Shown here: positions 18,982 to 23,040 of the stretch, one piece after another
How positions within the stretch are numbered: position 1 is the stretch's first letter
Layout: each line of letters starts with the position of its first letter
DNA from: Escherichia coli
Lineage (GTDB): Bacteria; Pseudomonadota; Gammaproteobacteria; Enterobacterales; Enterobacteriaceae
Direction: 5' to 3' (one strand)
Assembly (NCBI RefSeq): GCF_048403405.1
Contig: NZ_CP183129.1
Length of the DNA: 64,000 nucleotides
The notes under the pieces: model-generated
Seen by the model: only the letters and a program-made list of their open reading frames with translations
Databases searched by the model: none
What the model was told of the DNA's origin: nothing
Position numbers and translations under genes: made by a program

Positions 18982-20145
18982 TTATCCAGCAATGTAATGC
19001 GGAACGAAACGTGAGGTGTCTTTGGTGATCAGCGTGTTATCTTCACGGATCCCCATTCCGCACGCTTCATCATCGACAATCCAGCTACCGATGAGTGTGT
19101 AGCTATCGCCAAATCGCGGCAGAGGTTGAAACGCCTGGTAGATCATCGGTTCATCGGCGTAATCACCATCAGCGTGGTCAACGACGTTATTCTGACCGTC
19201 GAAAATGGTGACGTTTCCGCCTTCGCGTGAGTAGATCGGTTTACGCACATAGCTTTCGCCAGCGGCAATCTGCGGTTTTTCGCCCTCAAACCAGGATGCA
19301 AGAAGGTTAGGATGACCAGGAAAGAAGCGCCAAAGCAGCGGCATTAACCCTTTGTTGCTCAAGATACTTTTCCATAACGGCTCCACCCATTGCTCGCGGC
19401 GCTTGCGCAGCAGCGGACCGTTATCGTCACGCATCATCCACTCCAGCGGATACAGCTTAAATGCACGCTGGATGACATTATCATCAAGATCGGTCAGTAC
19501 GCCGCCGACGCCCAAACCGAGATCTTCAATGTAGATAAACCGCGACTCCTGCCCTGCCTGCTGGGCGCAGTCCTGCAAGTACAGCACGGTACTCCTGTCT
19601 TCATCGGTGTCCTGACAGCAGCAAAAATAAAACGGTTCCCGACTGTAAAGCTCGCTAAAGCGCGAAATCAGGCGTTCCTGAATGGCATTGTACTGATCGG
19701 CATCACGCGGAATAATGCCGCTGCGCCGGGCATCCTCCAGCCACAGCCACTGGAAATAAGCCGATTCATACAACGAGGTTGGCGTATCGGCGTTGTACTC
19801 CAGCAGCTTCACCGGCGCATTGCCACACCAGGCAAAATCCATCCGGCCATAGAGCGAAGGATCGCGTGCGCGCCAGCTTTCGGCGATCACATCCCAGTAC
19901 AACGGCGGGATCGCCAGTTGCGTCAGGATCTCTTCGTCTTTAACCGCGCAATCCACCACCTCAAGGCACATCTGATGCAGTTCCGCAGTTGGTTTTTCGA
20001 TCTGCTCTTCAATCTGACGCAGGGTAAAGCGGTAAGCCCGACTCTCATCCCAATAGATTTCATTGTCGATGATATGAAAGTCGAAACCGTTGTCAGCGGC
20101 GATCTGGTCCAGATCCCGCCGCACAGGAACGTTGTGTCTCAGCAT
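18982..20145 (-). CDS. yjfC: ATP-grasp ligase of the glutathionylspermidine-synthetase-like family, YjfC
   Basis: Track ORF to 20160; ATG at 20145 gives MLRHNVPVRRD..., 387 aa; last gene of the yjfI-C cassette. Confidence 0.85.
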   Translation of the reverse strand: MLRHNVPVRRDLDQIAADNGFDFHIIDNEIYWDESRAYRFTLRQIEEQIEKPTAELHQMCLEVVDCAVKDEEILTQLAIPPLYWDVIAESWRARDPSLYGRMDFAWCGNAPVKLLEYNADTPTSLYESAYFQWLWLEDARRSGIIPRDADQYNAIQERLISRFSELYSREPFYFCCCQDTDEDRSTVLYLQDCAQQAGQESRFIYIEDLGLGVGGVLTDLDDNVIQRAFKLYPLEWMMRDDNGPLLRKRREQWVEPLWKSILSNKGLMPLLWRFFPGHPNLLASWFEGEKPQIAAGESYVRKPIYSREGGNVTIFDGQNNVVDHADGDYADEPMIYQAFQPLPRFGDSYTLIGSWIVDDEACGMGIREDNTLITKDTSRFVPHYIAG

Positions 20146-20147
20146 GA

Positions 20148-20786
20148 TTAGCCTCCCCAATGCCCACGGGCGCTGGAAGAACGACCATAGCCGCCGCGAG
20201 AAACGGTTGACGCTTTTTTGGTGGTAAAGCCGCCCGAAGAGTAAGACTCTTTTTTGCCAGAACCGGAGCGCCAGGAGTAATCACCAGAAGTGTTGCGCCA
20301 GACGGGGCGCGAAGCAAAAGAGGAACCGCCGCTGTTATACACAAACTGCTCGTCGCGATCTTTACGAATAACCCGGCTTAACAAAAATCCAGAAACAACC
20401 GGGATCCAACTCTGTTCAACGTTGTCGTAGTAACAATTTTCATACTTAGACTGACAATTCTGCTGAGTCATATTCTTCGGAACATCGGCATAAAACGCCG
20501 CTTTGGCGTTGTTCCAGCCATGAGCACAGATATCTGAATTATTACCGTCATCAATACAATCCTGCACAGTCGAGTAAAACGTTCCGTCGCCGTCGTTATC
20601 GACATCGCCATTATCGCCACAACCTTTCAATACGAAAAAAGCGGCACCGCCCATTAGCACCAACGTTAAGTATTTTTGTGCGTAGCGATTGCGGCGCGGC
20701 TCAAAAGGATTATGCGGTCTTCCAATGCGACTGATCGCTCCGTGACCAATTTTACTGTTATTTCTTGATTTGCGTTTTCTGGCCAT
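20148..20786 (-). CDS. yjfM: DUF1190 bitopic membrane protein YjfM
   Basis: ORF 20148..20786, 212 aa; basic N-terminus, one TM helix, Asp-rich GDNGDVDNDGDG loop, Cys-containing domain, Gly/Ser/Tyr/Arg-rich tail. Confidence 0.8.
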   Translation of the reverse strand: MARKRKSRNNSKIGHGAISRIGRPHNPFEPRRNRYAQKYLTLVLMGGAAFFVLKGCGDNGDVDNDGDGTFYSTVQDCIDDGNNSDICAHGWNNAKAAFYADVPKNMTQQNCQSKYENCYYDNVEQSWIPVVSGFLLSRVIRKDRDEQFVYNSGGSSFASRPVWRNTSGDYSWRSGSGKKESYSSGGFTTKKASTVSRGGYGRSSSARGHWGG

Positions 20787-20795
20787 GATCGTCCA

Positions 20796-21194
20796 TTACC
20801 ATGTCATACAAGCTGCGTTAAAAATACCGCCAGCCAGTGCGGCGGTTCCCATAAACATTCCTGCTGCGGTATTGTGATTAATAATTTTTTCGCTTAATGC
20901 GGGCATATAAAGTCTGACGCCAGCAAAAACGAGTAACTGAATCACCAGTGCGATCCCGCCCCAGGCGAAATAGTCTGGAATACTCACCGCATTGATTGCC
21001 GCACTGGATAACGGGATCACGTAACCCAACAATGTACCGCTGAACGCCAGTGACGCCGCGGTATTATTGTTTTTGATTAACTGCCATTCGTTGTGCGGTG
21101 TAATTTTAGAATAGATAAACAGAAAAATAATCACCATAGCCACGCCAATAAAAAAATAGGCACTAAAGGCAAGAAGTGAATCCAGTATATGCAT
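20796..21194 (-). CDS. yjfL: DUF350 inner-membrane protein YjfL
   Basis: ATG at 21194 gives MHILDSLLAFSAYFFIGVAMV..., 132 aa, about 4 TM helices. Confidence 0.8.
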   Translation of the reverse strand: MHILDSLLAFSAYFFIGVAMVIIFLFIYSKITPHNEWQLIKNNNTAASLAFSGTLLGYVIPLSSAAINAVSIPDYFAWGGIALVIQLLVFAGVRLYMPALSEKIINHNTAAGMFMGTAALAGGIFNAACMTW

Positions 21195-21211
21195 TGTAAA
21201 CGTCCTTGTAA

Positions 21212-21871
21212 TTAACCAATAATATGAAGTGATGTCAGCGGGATATCGACACCCAACGCGCGCGAAAATAACCACTCTGGCTCGCCGAGATCGTTAAAAG
21301 ATTCCTCACCATTTAGCAGCAAATATTCGTAAGTATCTTCGGTTACTTGCCGTTGGTAGCCCATGGTAAAATTATGGACCTCCCATTTGGCATGGTTTTG
21401 ATTTTCTACTTTTTCCAGCATGTAGACGGGTTCGATATTTCCCGGTTCTTCGCTGTTAAAAAATCGCTGCCAGCGTTTTTCCTGCCAGTTTAAGGTCATT
21501 GCCCCTATCGCTTTGGCATTGATCGTCTCGCGCCAGTGACTCTCTTTACTAATACCGTAGCTCTCTTCATAGACAAAGAGCTTGATATCATCAATGTCAT
21601 CAATATTTTCGCCGCCGGTGGTATTGATTTGCAGAAATTCATCGCCCGAAGTGTAGTAGCGGAAAATCTGGCTACCGCCGCCCAGATCGATGCGGCTGAC
21701 GGCGGCTACCGTAAATTCCTCACCCGGCAGCGCAATCAGCAATTCATCTTCCAGCAAACGAAACGCTAACGTGTCGAGCGTAAAACCACTATTGAGATGC
21801 AGACCCAGCGGACCGCGAGCGATAGCAGGCTTATTATCCTTGCCAAACAGACGCTGGAAAAAACCAGACAT
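21212..21871 (-). CDS. yjfK: DUF2491 protein YjfK
   Basis: ORF 21212..21871, 219 aa, soluble; recognised as YjfK. Confidence 0.8.
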   Translation of the reverse strand: MSGFFQRLFGKDNKPAIARGPLGLHLNSGFTLDTLAFRLLEDELLIALPGEEFTVAAVSRIDLGGGSQIFRYYTSGDEFLQINTTGGENIDDIDDIKLFVYEESYGISKESHWRETINAKAIGAMTLNWQEKRWQRFFNSEEPGNIEPVYMLEKVENQNHAKWEVHNFTMGYQRQVTEDTYEYLLLNGEESFNDLGEPEWLFSRALGVDIPLTSLHIIG

Positions 21872-21891
21872 ATTTTATCCTTAAAATAGTT

Positions 21892-21914
21892 GCCAGCCTT
21901 GCAGTGAGGCTGGC
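21892..21914 (-). other. Intra-operon stem-loop between yjfJ and yjfK (GCCAGCC-9 nt-GGCTGGC)
   Basis: 7-bp GC stem directly after the yjfJ stop codon, preceded on the transcript by U7 and followed 5 nt later by UUUU. Confidence 0.4.
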
Positions 21915-21921
21915 AAAAAAA

Positions 21922-22620
21922 TTACTCGCCCTGTTGGCGTTGCAGTCTTGCTAATACATCCTGGGCGCTACTTTTATTGCTACCGCCTATTCCGGCTTCC
22001 GCCAGCTTTTCATCAAGATCGCGACCGTCTGCGACTTTTTCCAACTGTGCAGCAGCATCCAGACGAGCCTGACGTTCGGCCTGACGCGTTTGCAGGCGTT
22101 TTAAGGATTCTGCCGCTGTCGAAACGCTGGAAGATGCGCCAACGGTAGAGGTCGTTACAGCCTGTTGTGCACGCTGCATGGCTTCAGTGGCTTTAACGAC
22201 TTCCATTTGCTGCTCAAACTGAGCGATACGCTGCGCTGTCGCTGTAACTGCTTTTTCCACGCCATCACGAGAGACTTCCAGATTCGACAACACTTGCTCT
22301 TCAGCGGTAATGAGATTCTCAAGGCGCGCGATTTCTTCAGCAACTTCGTTAATCAACGACGGATTAACGTTCTTGCTTAACGCTTCCAGCGCACGGGCTT
22401 CCAGACTGGCTTTGCGCTCACGTAAATCTTTCAGCTTATCGTGACTTAATTTCACCCGCGCCAGCAGATCAACGCGAGATTTTCCGGCTTTATCGAGTTC
22501 AGCTTTAGCGTCACGGATATGCTGTTCCAGCATGCGCACGCCCTGGGTTTCTTCAATGGATTCTTCCGCCTGGGAGATAAACGATTTCCCCAGCGTAAAT
22601 AAACTTTTTAAAATTCCCAT
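21922..22620 (-). CDS. yjfJ: PspA/IM30-family coiled-coil protein YjfJ
   Basis: ORF 21922..22620, 232 aa; MGILKSLF... N-terminus and heptad-rich Ala/Glu/Lys/Arg sequence resemble PspA/Vipp1. Confidence 0.85.
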   Translation of the reverse strand: MGILKSLFTLGKSFISQAEESIEETQGVRMLEQHIRDAKAELDKAGKSRVDLLARVKLSHDKLKDLRERKASLEARALEALSKNVNPSLINEVAEEIARLENLITAEEQVLSNLEVSRDGVEKAVTATAQRIAQFEQQMEVVKATEAMQRAQQAVTTSTVGASSSVSTAAESLKRLQTRQAERQARLDAAAQLEKVADGRDLDEKLAEAGIGGSNKSSAQDVLARLQRQQGE

Positions 22621-22638
22621 AAATACCCGTCCTTGTAA

Positions 22639-23040
22639 TTAGAGTGAATATTCTTCTGTAATTTCAGCCAGATCCAATGCGTTATCTACCAGCGAGGTTA
22701 TCTCAAGCAGGATATCTTCAAGAGAAGATTTAAGCGATAACGCCCCGAAAACAATGTAATACTCTTCATGTTGCACGCTGGAGATCCCTACCGATGACAA
22801 CGGCATCATCTTCTGATTTCTTAATAAGAAGGTATTAAATTCATCTGGATTGCTGATACTACTTACCGGACAAATAAAGGTTTCGATAATCATTTGGCGG
22901 GAAGTAAATAGAATATTGATTTGCAAATCGCCATAATCATTCATTTTAATAATTAATGCGTTCTCGCCATTTGTTACATCAATATTTTGTTCAGGTACAG
23001 TTTGCAGCGCCGTCGCCAGCGCCAACGGATTCCATGTCAT
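22639..23040 (-). CDS. yjfI: DUF2170 protein YjfI
   Basis: ORF 22639..23040, 133 aa, acidic small protein; first gene of the cassette. Confidence 0.8.
   Translation of the reverse strand: MTWNPLALATALQTVPEQNIDVTNGENALIIKMNDYGDLQINILFTSRQMIIETFICPVSSISNPDEFNTFLLRNQKMMPLSSVGISSVQHEEYYIVFGALSLKSSLEDILLEITSLVDNALDLAEITEEYSL

Follow-up and report, generated by a model that had tools for sequence, protein, structure and literature searches.

The locus described here raises the question of whether YjfM, an Escherichia coli protein with a basic, Gly/Ser-rich C-terminal tail, is a substrate or a partner of YjfC, the ligase whose gene lies immediately downstream. The window analyzed is a 64,000-nucleotide stretch of E. 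coli contig NZ_CP183129.1 (RefSeq assembly GCF_048403405.1). The minus-strand open reading frame at 20148–20786 (212 codons followed by a TAA stop at 20148–20150) was identified from the list of open reading frames and its translation as E. coli yjfM, encoding 212 amino acids, and carries the RefSeq annotation yjfM, 'DUF1190 domain-containing protein'. Within yjfIJKLMC it occupies the fifth place: yjfL, yjfK, yjfJ, and yjfI lie upstream (20796–23040, minus strand), their products showing Pfam matches to a DUF350 membrane protein, DUF2491, PspA/IM30, and DUF2170 (CesT-like), respectively, and yjfC (18982–20145, minus strand), encoding a GspS-like ATP-grasp ligase (Pfam GSP_synth, E 1e-148), follows it. 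A 4.2-kb query running from yjfC to yjfI had a match in 5425 of 5426 complete E. coli genomes, and gene order of the yjfIJKLMC type was also found in Endozoicomonas, Kosakonia, Photorhabdus, Rhodanobacter, Dyella, and metagenomic contigs. A scan for promoters and terminators returned sites no more numerous than in shuffled sequence. YjfM, the product of an annotated K-12 gene and a member of a named Pfam family, is not new as an object, and both its place in the envelope and its tie to the ligase operon have been published before.

What the ligase acts on is a different matter, since, according to a 2025 review, it is unknown which substrate YgiC and YjfC use physiologically (PMC11762307). The same review reports peptide-spermidine ligase activity of YjfC/YgiC on peptides in vitro and describes YgiC as devoid of glutathionylspermidine synthetase activity (PMC11762307). 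YjfC matches PDB entries 7uk6 and 7uk7 ('Putative acid--amine ligase YjfC'), for which the crystal structure has been solved, and is homologous to GspS and trypanothione synthetase; it carries no signal peptide and needs ATP. Its paralogue bears the RefSeq product name 'peptide--spermidine ligase YgiC'.

Residues 69–211 of YjfM align to positions 5–159 of the 159-position Pfam DUF1190 profile (PF06693) with 65.9 bits (cut-off 22, E 7e-18). Against NCBIfam NF008655 (PRK11653), the equivalog model of YgiB-type DUF1190 proteins, YjfM scores 48.3 bits, far below the cut-off of 223, which makes it a paralogue of YgiB and not its equivalog; the data strongly indicate that YjfM is an Enterobacterales-specific paralogue of YgiB within DUF1190. 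The two proteins share the four Cys, the FWMPxMxG[FY]M core, and a GspS-like ligase encoded directly downstream, YgiC following YgiB (b3037, DUF1190/UPF0441; tolC-ygiB-ygiC) after a 5-nt gap as the second such pair of E. coli, and the YgiB tail reads T-V-T-R-G-G-F-G ... M-G-G-COOH. They differ in that YgiB, a predicted outer-membrane lipoprotein (PMC11762307), has the canonical lipobox LAGC (Cys37), whereas YjfM has L-K-G-C behind its basic extension; that ygiBC stands alone, whereas yjfMC is embedded in a PspA-type six-gene operon; and that only YjfM carries the Asp-rich DNDGDG loop. Loss of YgiBC and YjfMC worsens the growth defect of a tolC deletion in minimal glucose, according to a preprint and a review (PMC11762307), and this effect fits related roles of the two pairs.

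The position of YjfM in the cell bears directly on any reaction with a cytoplasmic enzyme. The protein begins with a basic extension (residues 1–38; 20673–20786, minus strand) of net charge +11, predicted to be cytoplasmic and specific to the YjfM subfamily in the orthologue alignment, and continues with its only strongly hydrophobic segment, YLTLVLMGGAAFFVLK (residues 39–54; 20625–20672, minus strand), whose Kyte-Doolittle 15-residue maximum is 2.13. Conservation was counted over 113 DUF1190 representatives sharing less than 50% identity with one another. Most family members start with MKRS and have a lipobox Cys at about residue 23; this Cys is present in 107 of the 113, preceded by Leu at −3 in 96 and by Gly, Ala, or Ser at −1 in 109, with Ala, Thr, and Ser the commonest residues at −2. 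A PROSITE-style lipobox rule of the PS51257 type ([LVI]-[ASTVI]-[GAS]-C after an uncharged h-region, with the Cys within approximately the first 35 residues) was passed by 90/113 representatives. YjfM and its subfamily fail it: the degenerate lipobox of YjfM (L-K-G-C, residues 53–56; 20619–20630, minus strand) has Lys at −2 and places the Cys only at residue 56, and the YjfM-type orthologues P0101, P0102, and P0143 have no lipobox Cys. L42, M45, and L53 of the hydrophobic segment are conserved in the family; by this alignment, residues 39–54 are homologous to the h-region of the DUF1190 lipoprotein signal peptide, and they probably act as an uncleaved signal anchor. Most DUF1190 proteins appear from their sequences to be canonical lipoproteins with four invariant Cys, and in YjfM the signal has, on strong comparative evidence, gained a basic extension of about 35 residues and lost a proper lipobox. 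The degenerate lipobox and the long basic extension together indicate that YjfM is probably a signal-anchored inner-membrane protein, and the +11 N-terminus predicts an N-in, C-out orientation; YjfM is most likely a type-II inner-membrane protein with a cytoplasmic N-terminus and a domain and tail predicted to be periplasmic.

These results bear out the basic N-terminus and single transmembrane segment proposed in the earlier note, and its description of a membrane-anchored extracytoplasmic protein is well supported by the lipoboxes of the family, the invariant Cys, and the charge of the N-terminus. Another topology, in which residues 126–140 (SWIPVVSGFLLSRVI) form a second transmembrane helix and the protein runs in-out-in with a cytoplasmic tail, had been suggested by the hydrophobicity of this stretch together with the +8 charge of the tail; it was rejected, as the run of hydrophobic residues spans only some 12 positions and is broken by a conserved Arg, and AlphaFold2 predicts two core beta strands there (pLDDT >90). 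With residues 126–137 forming core strands, and given the lipoprotein signals and the invariant Cys, the mature tail should be periplasmic.

The DUF1190 core (residues 69–175; 20262–20582, minus strand) is predicted to be a compact alpha+beta domain. YjfM contains five Cys (56, 77, 87, 111, and 118), one before the Asp-rich stretch and four after it, and not the six previously counted; C77, C87, and C111 are present in all 113 representatives and C118 in 112. P129 is likewise found in 113/113, and YjfM carries the core motif [WF]-x-P-x-x-x-G-[FY] (P129, G133, F134), the Cys and core columns being conserved in 110–113 of the 113. The core also contains a hydrophobic W127–L136 hairpin and an S159-R-P-V-W163 motif. 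These four Cys are consistent with an exported domain that contains disulfide bonds. In the AlphaFold2 model, built from a 124-sequence alignment, residues 141–170 are predicted as beta strands (pLDDT 87–94), and residues 150–175 belong to the confidently predicted domain. The plan of the family, strongly supported by these comparisons, begins with a lipoprotein signal, followed by a short acidic linker and a Cys4 alpha+beta domain of about 110 residues, and closes with a basic Gly/Ser-rich tail that bears T-x-S-R-G-G-[FY]-G and terminates in [WF]-G-G-COOH.

The tail carries the features most relevant to the question posed. The last 62 residues of YjfM, which the earlier note correctly saw as compositionally biased, consist of 26% Ser, 21% Gly, and 10% Arg, with a net charge of +8. 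The accompanying idea of a disordered low-complexity tail agrees with the prediction for residues 176–212 (20151–20261, minus strand; pLDDT 52–56 with YjfM modeled alone) and has to be given up for residues 150–175, which are predicted to be folded. Although flexible in the model, the segment 176–212 carries two motifs conserved in the alignment. The first, T-V-S-R-G-G-Y-G in YjfM (residues 194–201; 20184–20207, minus strand), contains the predicted YjfC docking strand; as T-x-S-R-G-G-[FY]-G it is nearly invariant and is the most conserved motif of the family (T194 in 90, R197 and G199 in 110 each, F/Y200 in 111, and G201 in 112 of the 113). The second is the free C-terminus W-G-G (residues 210–212; 20151–20159, minus strand), a candidate acyl-donor carboxylate for the ligase: 97 of the 113 representatives end in GG, 13 in GS, and three otherwise, Gly being penultimate in 110 and an aromatic residue standing at −3 in 76, whereas a GG end would be expected by chance in about 4%, Gly making up about 20% of tail residues. 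YgiB (SMGG) and phage homologues (FGG, MGG, SGG) also have the GG end, and from Escherichia through to Klebsiella the final 17 residues hardly differ, while whole-protein identity is only 56–75%. The earlier note had named a lack of conservation of the tail among orthologues as counting against its proposal; both the motif and the GG end are conserved. Across the 113 diverse representatives, these features are under selection beyond chance.

The gene pair itself is conserved as well. The yjfC start codon (ATG, 20145–20143) lies 2 nt beyond the yjfM stop on the same strand, so that it is the start of yjfC, downstream, and not its stop, as had been thought, that adjoins yjfM. Loci were sampled with a degenerate DNA pattern for GGFG-x8-WGG-stop, which biases the sample toward canonical tail spacing and yielded 55 loci, approximately 37 of them true DUF1190 members. 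A YjfC homologue (46–89% identity) was present at all of these approximately 37 reference-genome loci with enough flanking sequence, usually encoded directly downstream of the DUF1190 gene and often with a TAATG or TGATG overlap. The same pairing occurs in independent metagenomic lineages with the orders K-channel-DUF350-DUF1190-GSP_synth, DUF1190-GSP_synth, and DUF350-DUF1190-GSP_synth; the exceptions are phage copies. The DUF1190 gene is therefore almost always paired, and usually translationally coupled, with a gene for a GspS-like ligase (YjfC/YgiC). Apparent natural YjfM-YjfC fusions (P0254–P0258, P0301, and P0305) were considered as a physical link and rejected as frameshifts in which the tail is replaced by out-of-frame sequence.

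A contact between the two proteins was modeled with AlphaFold2 as a fusion of YjfC, a G30 linker, and the tail. In a single run with 13 paired rows and without a scrambled-tail control, YjfM residues 189–198 were predicted with a pLDDT of 86, with a strand at T194–R197, as against about 53–56 when YjfM was modeled alone. The linker remained at 28–40 and the last eight residues (SARGHWGG) below 50; the input alignment was clean. The model thus places the T-V-S-R motif on YjfC, as a prediction.

Taken together, the gene pair, the conserved Gly-Gly end, the chemistry of the enzyme family, and the modeled docking of TVSR lend support to the suggestion of the earlier note that the tail may be a substrate or partner of YjfC, and they make YjfM a testable candidate for the natural substrate of this ligase. 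In the reading that we favor, YjfM would be YjfC's own protein substrate: the TVSRGG motif would dock onto the enzyme as an added beta strand, and the last 11 flexible residues would bring the terminal Gly carboxylate to the active site, where it would be activated by ATP and then amidated with spermidine. The chemistry would be that of GspS on the Gly carboxylate of glutathione; both GspS and trypanothione synthetase join spermidine by an amide bond to a C-terminal Gly whose carboxylate they have activated. Amidation would take place while the C-terminus is still in the cytoplasm, prior to or in the course of Sec export; it would yield an envelope protein that is polycationic at its C-terminus and acts within the PspA-type membrane-stress module YjfIJKL. 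The corresponding candidate substrate peptide from YjfM is TVSRGGYGRSSSARGHWGG. We hold this reading tentatively and give YjfM as the cognate substrate, docked through TVSRGG and amidated with spermidine at its terminal Gly before or during export, a little less than an even chance.

Comparison with known systems places the proposal between several precedents. YjfC is homologous to the synthetase domain of GspS and trypanothione synthetase, and YjfM offers X-Gly-Gly-COOH, but the acyl donor of GspS is a cytoplasmic tripeptide (glutathione) and not, as proposed here, a 212-residue exported protein. RimK acting on S6, LysX/ArgX acting on LysW, and tubulin tyrosine ligase are ATP-grasp enzymes that work on a conserved protein C-terminus, as is proposed for YjfC, and LysW and LysX are encoded side by side; their substrates, in contrast to YjfM, are cytoplasmic and end in Glu, and the nucleophile is an amino acid and not a polyamine. 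Like substrates of this kind, YjfM has a conserved extreme C-terminal residue and genetic linkage to its ligase; it departs from them in its compartment: the predicted location of the mature tail is the periplasm, and YjfC is a cytoplasmic enzyme. The earlier note had listed a tail out of reach of YjfC among the outcomes that would speak against its proposal, and this condition partly applies. The mismatch keeps YjfM a candidate, and the substrate idea can be reconciled with it only if modification precedes or accompanies export. HMW1C/HMW1 and Aah/AIDA-I are precedents for a cytoplasmic modification that comes ahead of Sec export; in them, as is proposed for yjfMC, a cytoplasmic modifier is encoded beside its exported substrate, and such a route would resolve the compartment problem; these systems are not homologous and involve glycosylation of internal residues, not C-terminal amidation. 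Braun's lipoprotein Lpp is another small envelope lipoprotein whose extreme C-terminal residue reacts covalently, its C-terminal Lys being linked to peptidoglycan by periplasmic L,D-transpeptidases, but it shows no homology to YjfM and involves neither an ATP-grasp enzyme nor a polyamine.

The same compartment prediction, with domain and tail outside the cytoplasm, favors another reading, in which YjfM, tethered to the membrane on its periplasmic side, serves the YjfIJKL membrane-stress module as a sensor or scaffold and is a pathway partner of YjfC, not its substrate. Its basic tail would act in the periplasm, for example on anionic lipids, LPS, peptidoglycan, or the DUF350 protein YjfL, and YjfC would make a small peptidyl-polyamine in the cytoplasm, gene adjacency reflecting co-regulation and stoichiometry. 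A DUF350 gene indeed lies almost always immediately upstream of the DUF1190 gene, and the tail is almost free of acidic residues (an Asp or Glu residue occurs C-terminal to the RGGFG motif in only 3/109 homologues) and polycationic even when unmodified. Moreover, the 136 phage records with DUF1190 homologues keep the tail without an adjacent ligase gene, so that the tail may have a ligase-independent role, and activity on peptides in vitro is what has been reported for YjfC/YgiC. This reading nevertheless leaves unexplained the exact Gly-Gly-COOH end in 86% of very diverse homologues and the modeled docking of TVSR on a cytoplasmic enzyme; in addition, co-regulation alone rarely keeps a stop/start overlap across alpha- and gammaproteobacteria or a second minimal two-gene copy such as ygiBC. 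We regard it as a serious possibility that falls clearly short of an even chance.

Metal binding, suggested by the description of DUF1190 as 'a metal-chelating lipoprotein' (Ravi et al., 2024; PMC11237479), would make YjfM an envelope protein in which the four invariant Cys and/or a DxDxDG-like loop bind Zn, Fe, Cu, or Ca; this would be the core function of DUF1190, with the tail as an accessory linker. The Asp-rich stretch noted previously is indeed present at G55–G68 (GCGDNGDVDNDGDG), and within it the Asp/Gly/Asn-rich linker GDNGDVDNDGDG (residues 57–68; 20583–20618, minus strand) matches the calcium-loop pattern D-x-[DN]-x-[DN]-G twice, as D61-V-D-N-D-G66 and D63-N-D-G-D-G68. DNDGDG is kept in close Enterobacterales orthologues only, however, and the loop is absent from most of DUF1190, its columns being gaps in 60–96 of the 113 sequences; the AlphaFold2 pLDDT is below 50 at residues 46–61 and 74 at residues 61–70, so that by alignment and model the loop appears as a lineage-specific part of a low-confidence linker. 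The Cys spacing, C-x9-C-x23-C-x6-C, contains no CxxC, and two disulfides would be the simpler reading for an exported protein. A Pfam search of YjfM gave no metal-binding domain at E≤0.01, a sequence search of solved structures gave none at E≤1, and no structural relative of the domain was found among solved structures. As metal binding would also leave the conserved tail and the ligase pairing unaccounted for, we consider it unlikely as the function of YjfM.

It is highly improbable, finally, that the 3' end of yjfM is conserved only as a ribosome-binding or coupling signal of yjfC, the remaining tail being tolerated low complexity: the Gly211-Gly212 codons do hold a GGAGG Shine-Dalgarno sequence (20152–20156, minus strand; ...CAT TGG GGA GGC TAA TC ATG), which precedes the yjfC start codon by 6 nt in E. 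coli, Kosakonia, and Citrobacter, but the WGG end persists in Sphingomonas loci L028 and L033 as TGG GGC GGC TGA, with the L028 genes divergent, in Photorhabdus and Veronia despite an intergenic gap of >100 nt, and in phages; T.SRGGFG, 30–50 nt upstream of the stop, is too distant for a Shine-Dalgarno role; and the GG codons vary synonymously between lineages (GGA GGC, GGT GGT, GGC GGC, GGG GGA), which argues that selection acts on the protein, so that this explanation of the Gly-Gly was rejected.

Three new observations, the near-universal Gly-Gly-COOH end, the T.SRGGFG motif that AlphaFold2 places on the enzyme, and the strict gene pairing, point to the upstream neighbor of the ligase, and the comparison adds a sharp and cheaply testable hypothesis to the open question of the YgiC/YjfC substrate. 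Its extension to the whole family, by which DUF1190 proteins of Proteobacteria and large phages would dock through T-x-S-R-G-G-F-G and have spermidine coupled to their C-terminal Gly by the neighboring ligase, either before export or in the course of it, is rather doubtful. Should the C-terminal Gly prove to be amidated with spermidine, this would be a new protein modification and the first case of a bacterial protein polyaminated at its C-terminus by an enzyme. It would also reveal which substrate YgiC/YjfC act on in the cell, a long-standing question, and connect polyamines with a membrane-stress module of the PspA type and with the growth defect that tolC deletion mutants show.

The gene encoding YjfM (window 20148-20786, minus strand; 212 residues) belongs to the yjfI-yjfJ-yjfK-yjfL-yjfM-yjfC cluster (18982-23040, minus strand), identified from E. 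coli annotations on matched genomes, and a 4.2-kb cluster query found matches in 5425 of 5426 complete E. coli genomes. The encoded proteins are assigned to the Pfam families DUF2170 (YjfI), PspA/IM30 (YjfJ), DUF2491 (YjfK), DUF350 (YjfL), DUF1190 (YjfM, 65.9 bits against a cut-off of 22), and GSP_synth (YjfC, E 1e-148). Between the yjfJ stop codon (21922) and the yjfK start codon (21871) lies a 10-bp GC-rich hairpin with a T-rich tract after it (TTGCCAGCC...GGCTGGCAA CTATTTT; 21890-21916, minus strand), which could serve as an internal attenuator dividing yjfIJ from yjfKLMC; one paper uses the term 'yjfIJ operon'.

As a family member, YjfM is already known, including its extracytoplasmic reading, and the earlier sequence-only observation was partly confirmed. 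The protein has the described basic N-terminus (residues 1-38, net charge +11), a hydrophobic segment (residues 39-54), an Asp-rich stretch (GCGDNGDVDNDGDG), and a Ser/Gly/Arg-rich C-terminal third (net charge +8), together with five cysteines (56, 77, 87, 111, and 118) instead of the six reported. In the AlphaFold2 model, built on a 124-sequence alignment, residues 71-170 (pLDDT at least 87, mostly >90) comprise three helices and then a beta sheet. The tail had been described as disordered, which holds for residues 176-212 (pLDDT 52-56) but not for residues 150-175, modeled as strands at pLDDT 92-94. An in-out-in topology with a cytoplasmic tail is unsupported, because the second hydrophobic stretch (residues 126-137) is modeled as two strands of the sheet.

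An exhaustive HMMER search for DUF1190 proteins gave 152 cluster representatives, and family counts were made on 113 full-length representatives with pairwise identity <50%. Most members start with MKRS and carry a modified Cys at about residue 23; Cys occupies the lipobox column in 107 of the 113, and 90 pass the PROSITE-style lipobox rule. This family lipobox and the topology evidence support the proposed membrane-anchored extracytoplasmic protein. YjfM and its close orthologs carry a basic N-terminal extension, roughly 35 residues long, ahead of the hydrophobic segment, and in their lipobox position -2 is Lys, Arg, or Asn, the Cys itself being absent from a few orthologs. Since YjfM (LKGC, in contrast to LAGC in its E. 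coli paralog YgiB) fails the lipoprotein rule, its sequence makes a signal-anchored inner-membrane protein more likely. Within the signal, the n-region and the start of the h-region (M-K-R-S-x-x-[ILV]-x-L-x-x-M, columns equivalent to YjfM 35-46) are conserved (R in 85/113, S in 82/113), an unusual feature in a peptide destined only for cleavage, and where the leader is longer, as in YgiB and phage copies among others, the MKRS-type motif is still present as its own N-terminal element. A small clade (P0172, P0186, P0210, P0238, and P0252) shows a Tat-like [ST/D]-R-R-x-F upstream of the h-region; if these were true Tat substrates, folding, and possibly modification, would take place in the cytoplasm ahead of export.

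The cysteines equivalent to YjfM 77, 87, 111, and 118 are invariant among the 113 representatives, as is P129 within a [WF]-x-P-x-x-x-G-[FY] motif. The best-conserved stretch belongs to the tail, with T194 retained in 90, R197 and G199 each in 110, F/Y200 in 111, and G201 in 112 of 113 sequences. An alignment-free count showed C-terminal Gly-Gly in 97/113 and Gly-Ser in 13/113, with an aromatic residue at -3 in 76, and acidic residues follow RGGFG in only 3 of 109 homologs. YgiB follows the general plan of the family, with four such cysteines, TVTRGGFG, and a terminal SMGG. The terminal S-W-G-G is duplicated in P0150, P0157, P0163, P0198, P0208, and P0230 (e.g., ...ARGSWGGGKSWGG), as though a short repeat module made up the end of the tail. 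DUF1190 proteins have been regarded as metal-chelating lipoproteins (PMC11237479), a less likely view that accounts for neither the conserved tail nor the ligase pairing described below; DNDGDG in the Asp-rich loop fits the DxDxDG calcium-loop pattern, and is kept only in close Enterobacterales orthologs, with these columns gapped in 60-96 of the 113 sequences.

The yjfC gene lies downstream of yjfM on the same strand (...CAT TGG GGA GGC TAA TC ATG...), and the 2-nt gap, previously described as stop to stop, separates the yjfM stop from the yjfC start. The GGAGG Shine-Dalgarno sequence of yjfC (20152-20156, minus strand), 6 nt before the ATG, coincides with the Gly211-Gly212 codons of yjfM, a double use found in E. 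coli, Kosakonia, and Citrobacter. Conservation of the tail end solely as a ribosome-binding site was rejected, as WGG is kept even when yjfC does not follow directly, and synonymous Gly codons vary by lineage. An A6 run (20214-20219, minus strand) forms codons K190-K191. Public assemblies contain 474-601-residue open reading frames with both DUF1190 and GSP_synth (P0254-P0258, P0301, and P0305; P0258 represents 130 sequences), which are not true fusions: frameshifts at or upstream of the A6 run, several earlier in the tail, exchange the conserved tail for out-of-frame sequence that enters the TTG-started yjfC frame, and could be sequencing errors or genuine pseudogene alleles.

A search of reference genomes with a degenerate DNA pattern (GGFG-x8-WGG-stop) gave 55 loci, about 37 of them true family members, and every true DUF1190 locus with enough flanking sequence contained a YjfC homolog (46-89% identity), nearly always directly downstream and often with a TAATG or TGATG overlap. 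The paired taxa include Endozoicomonas, Photorhabdus, Kosakonia, Atlantibacter, Citrobacter, Rhodanobacter, Dyella, Veronia, Pontibacterium, and Sphingomonas, where the genes are rearranged and the locus with sufficient flank (L028) still has the ligase. In MG1655, ygiC, whose product is named peptide--spermidine ligase in RefSeq, starts 5 nt after ygiB. Four unrelated metagenomic representatives showed K-channel-DUF350-DUF1190-GSP_synth, the full six-gene operon, DUF1190-GSP_synth alone, and DUF350-DUF1190-GSP_synth; the sole exception to pairing was a phage-like contig. The potassium-channel gene (Ion_trans_2) lies beside DUF350-DUF1190-GSP_synth on two unrelated contigs (L057, 1584-2645; L058, 7849-8919), in agreement with an operon arrangement that Ravi et al. 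(2024; PMC11237479) reported. DUF1190 homologs (phrog_3739) also occur, with no adjacent ligase, in 136 phage records, comprising large myoviruses and jumbo phages of Klebsiella, Erwinia, Cronobacter, Citrobacter, and others (e.g., L056, 2302-2814; L063, 1501-2070; L064, 1501-2118; L065, 1483-2079), and these copies keep the lipobox, the four cysteines, and the T-x-[ST]-R-[GS]-G-F-G ... G-G-COOH tail.

GspS and trypanothione synthetase activate glutathione by phosphorylating its C-terminal Gly carboxylate, which they then amidate with spermidine. YjfC, with solved structures (7uk6/7uk7), is a homolog of their synthetase domains. Given this Gly-carboxylate chemistry, the conserved X-Gly-Gly-COOH end of YjfM, and its gene immediately upstream, YjfM is an obvious candidate substrate. 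An AlphaFold2 fusion model of YjfC, 30 Gly, and YjfM(176-212), based on 13 paired and 80 unpaired alignment rows, gave pLDDT of about 82-98 for the enzyme and 28-40 for the linker. The 189-198 block reached 86, with a beta strand at T194-R197, compared with 53-56 in YjfM alone, whereas the following block had 57 and the last eight residues <50. This single run, on the native tail only, favors the idea that the ligase recognizes the invariant T.SRGG motif, but does not establish that the terminal Gly enters the active site.

All topology evidence puts the mature tail in the periplasm, whereas YjfC lacks a signal peptide and, as an ATP-grasp enzyme, works in the cytoplasm; the hypothesis therefore needs the YjfM C-terminus to be modified by YjfC before or during Sec export. 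Cytoplasmic modification preceding export has precedents in HMW1C/HMW1 and Aah/AIDA-I, and would fit the tight yjfM-yjfC translational coupling. The main rival reading is that YjfM acts as a periplasmic sensor or scaffold of a PspA-type module, with YjfC making a small conjugate. The earlier proposal that the tail is a substrate or partner of YjfC is strengthened by the Gly-Gly end, the gene pairing, and the fusion model, although it is unproven, the mature tail being predicted periplasmic, and we regard it as a tentative possibility; actual C-terminal spermidinylation of YjfM seems rather doubtful. According to a 2025 review (PMC11762307), YgiC has no glutathionylspermidine synthetase activity and acts as a peptide-spermidine ligase whose natural substrate is unknown, and a 2023 paper, as cited there, ascribes the same ligase activity to YjfC. 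For the substrate question of YgiC and YjfC, the YjfM tail provides a concrete, testable lead.
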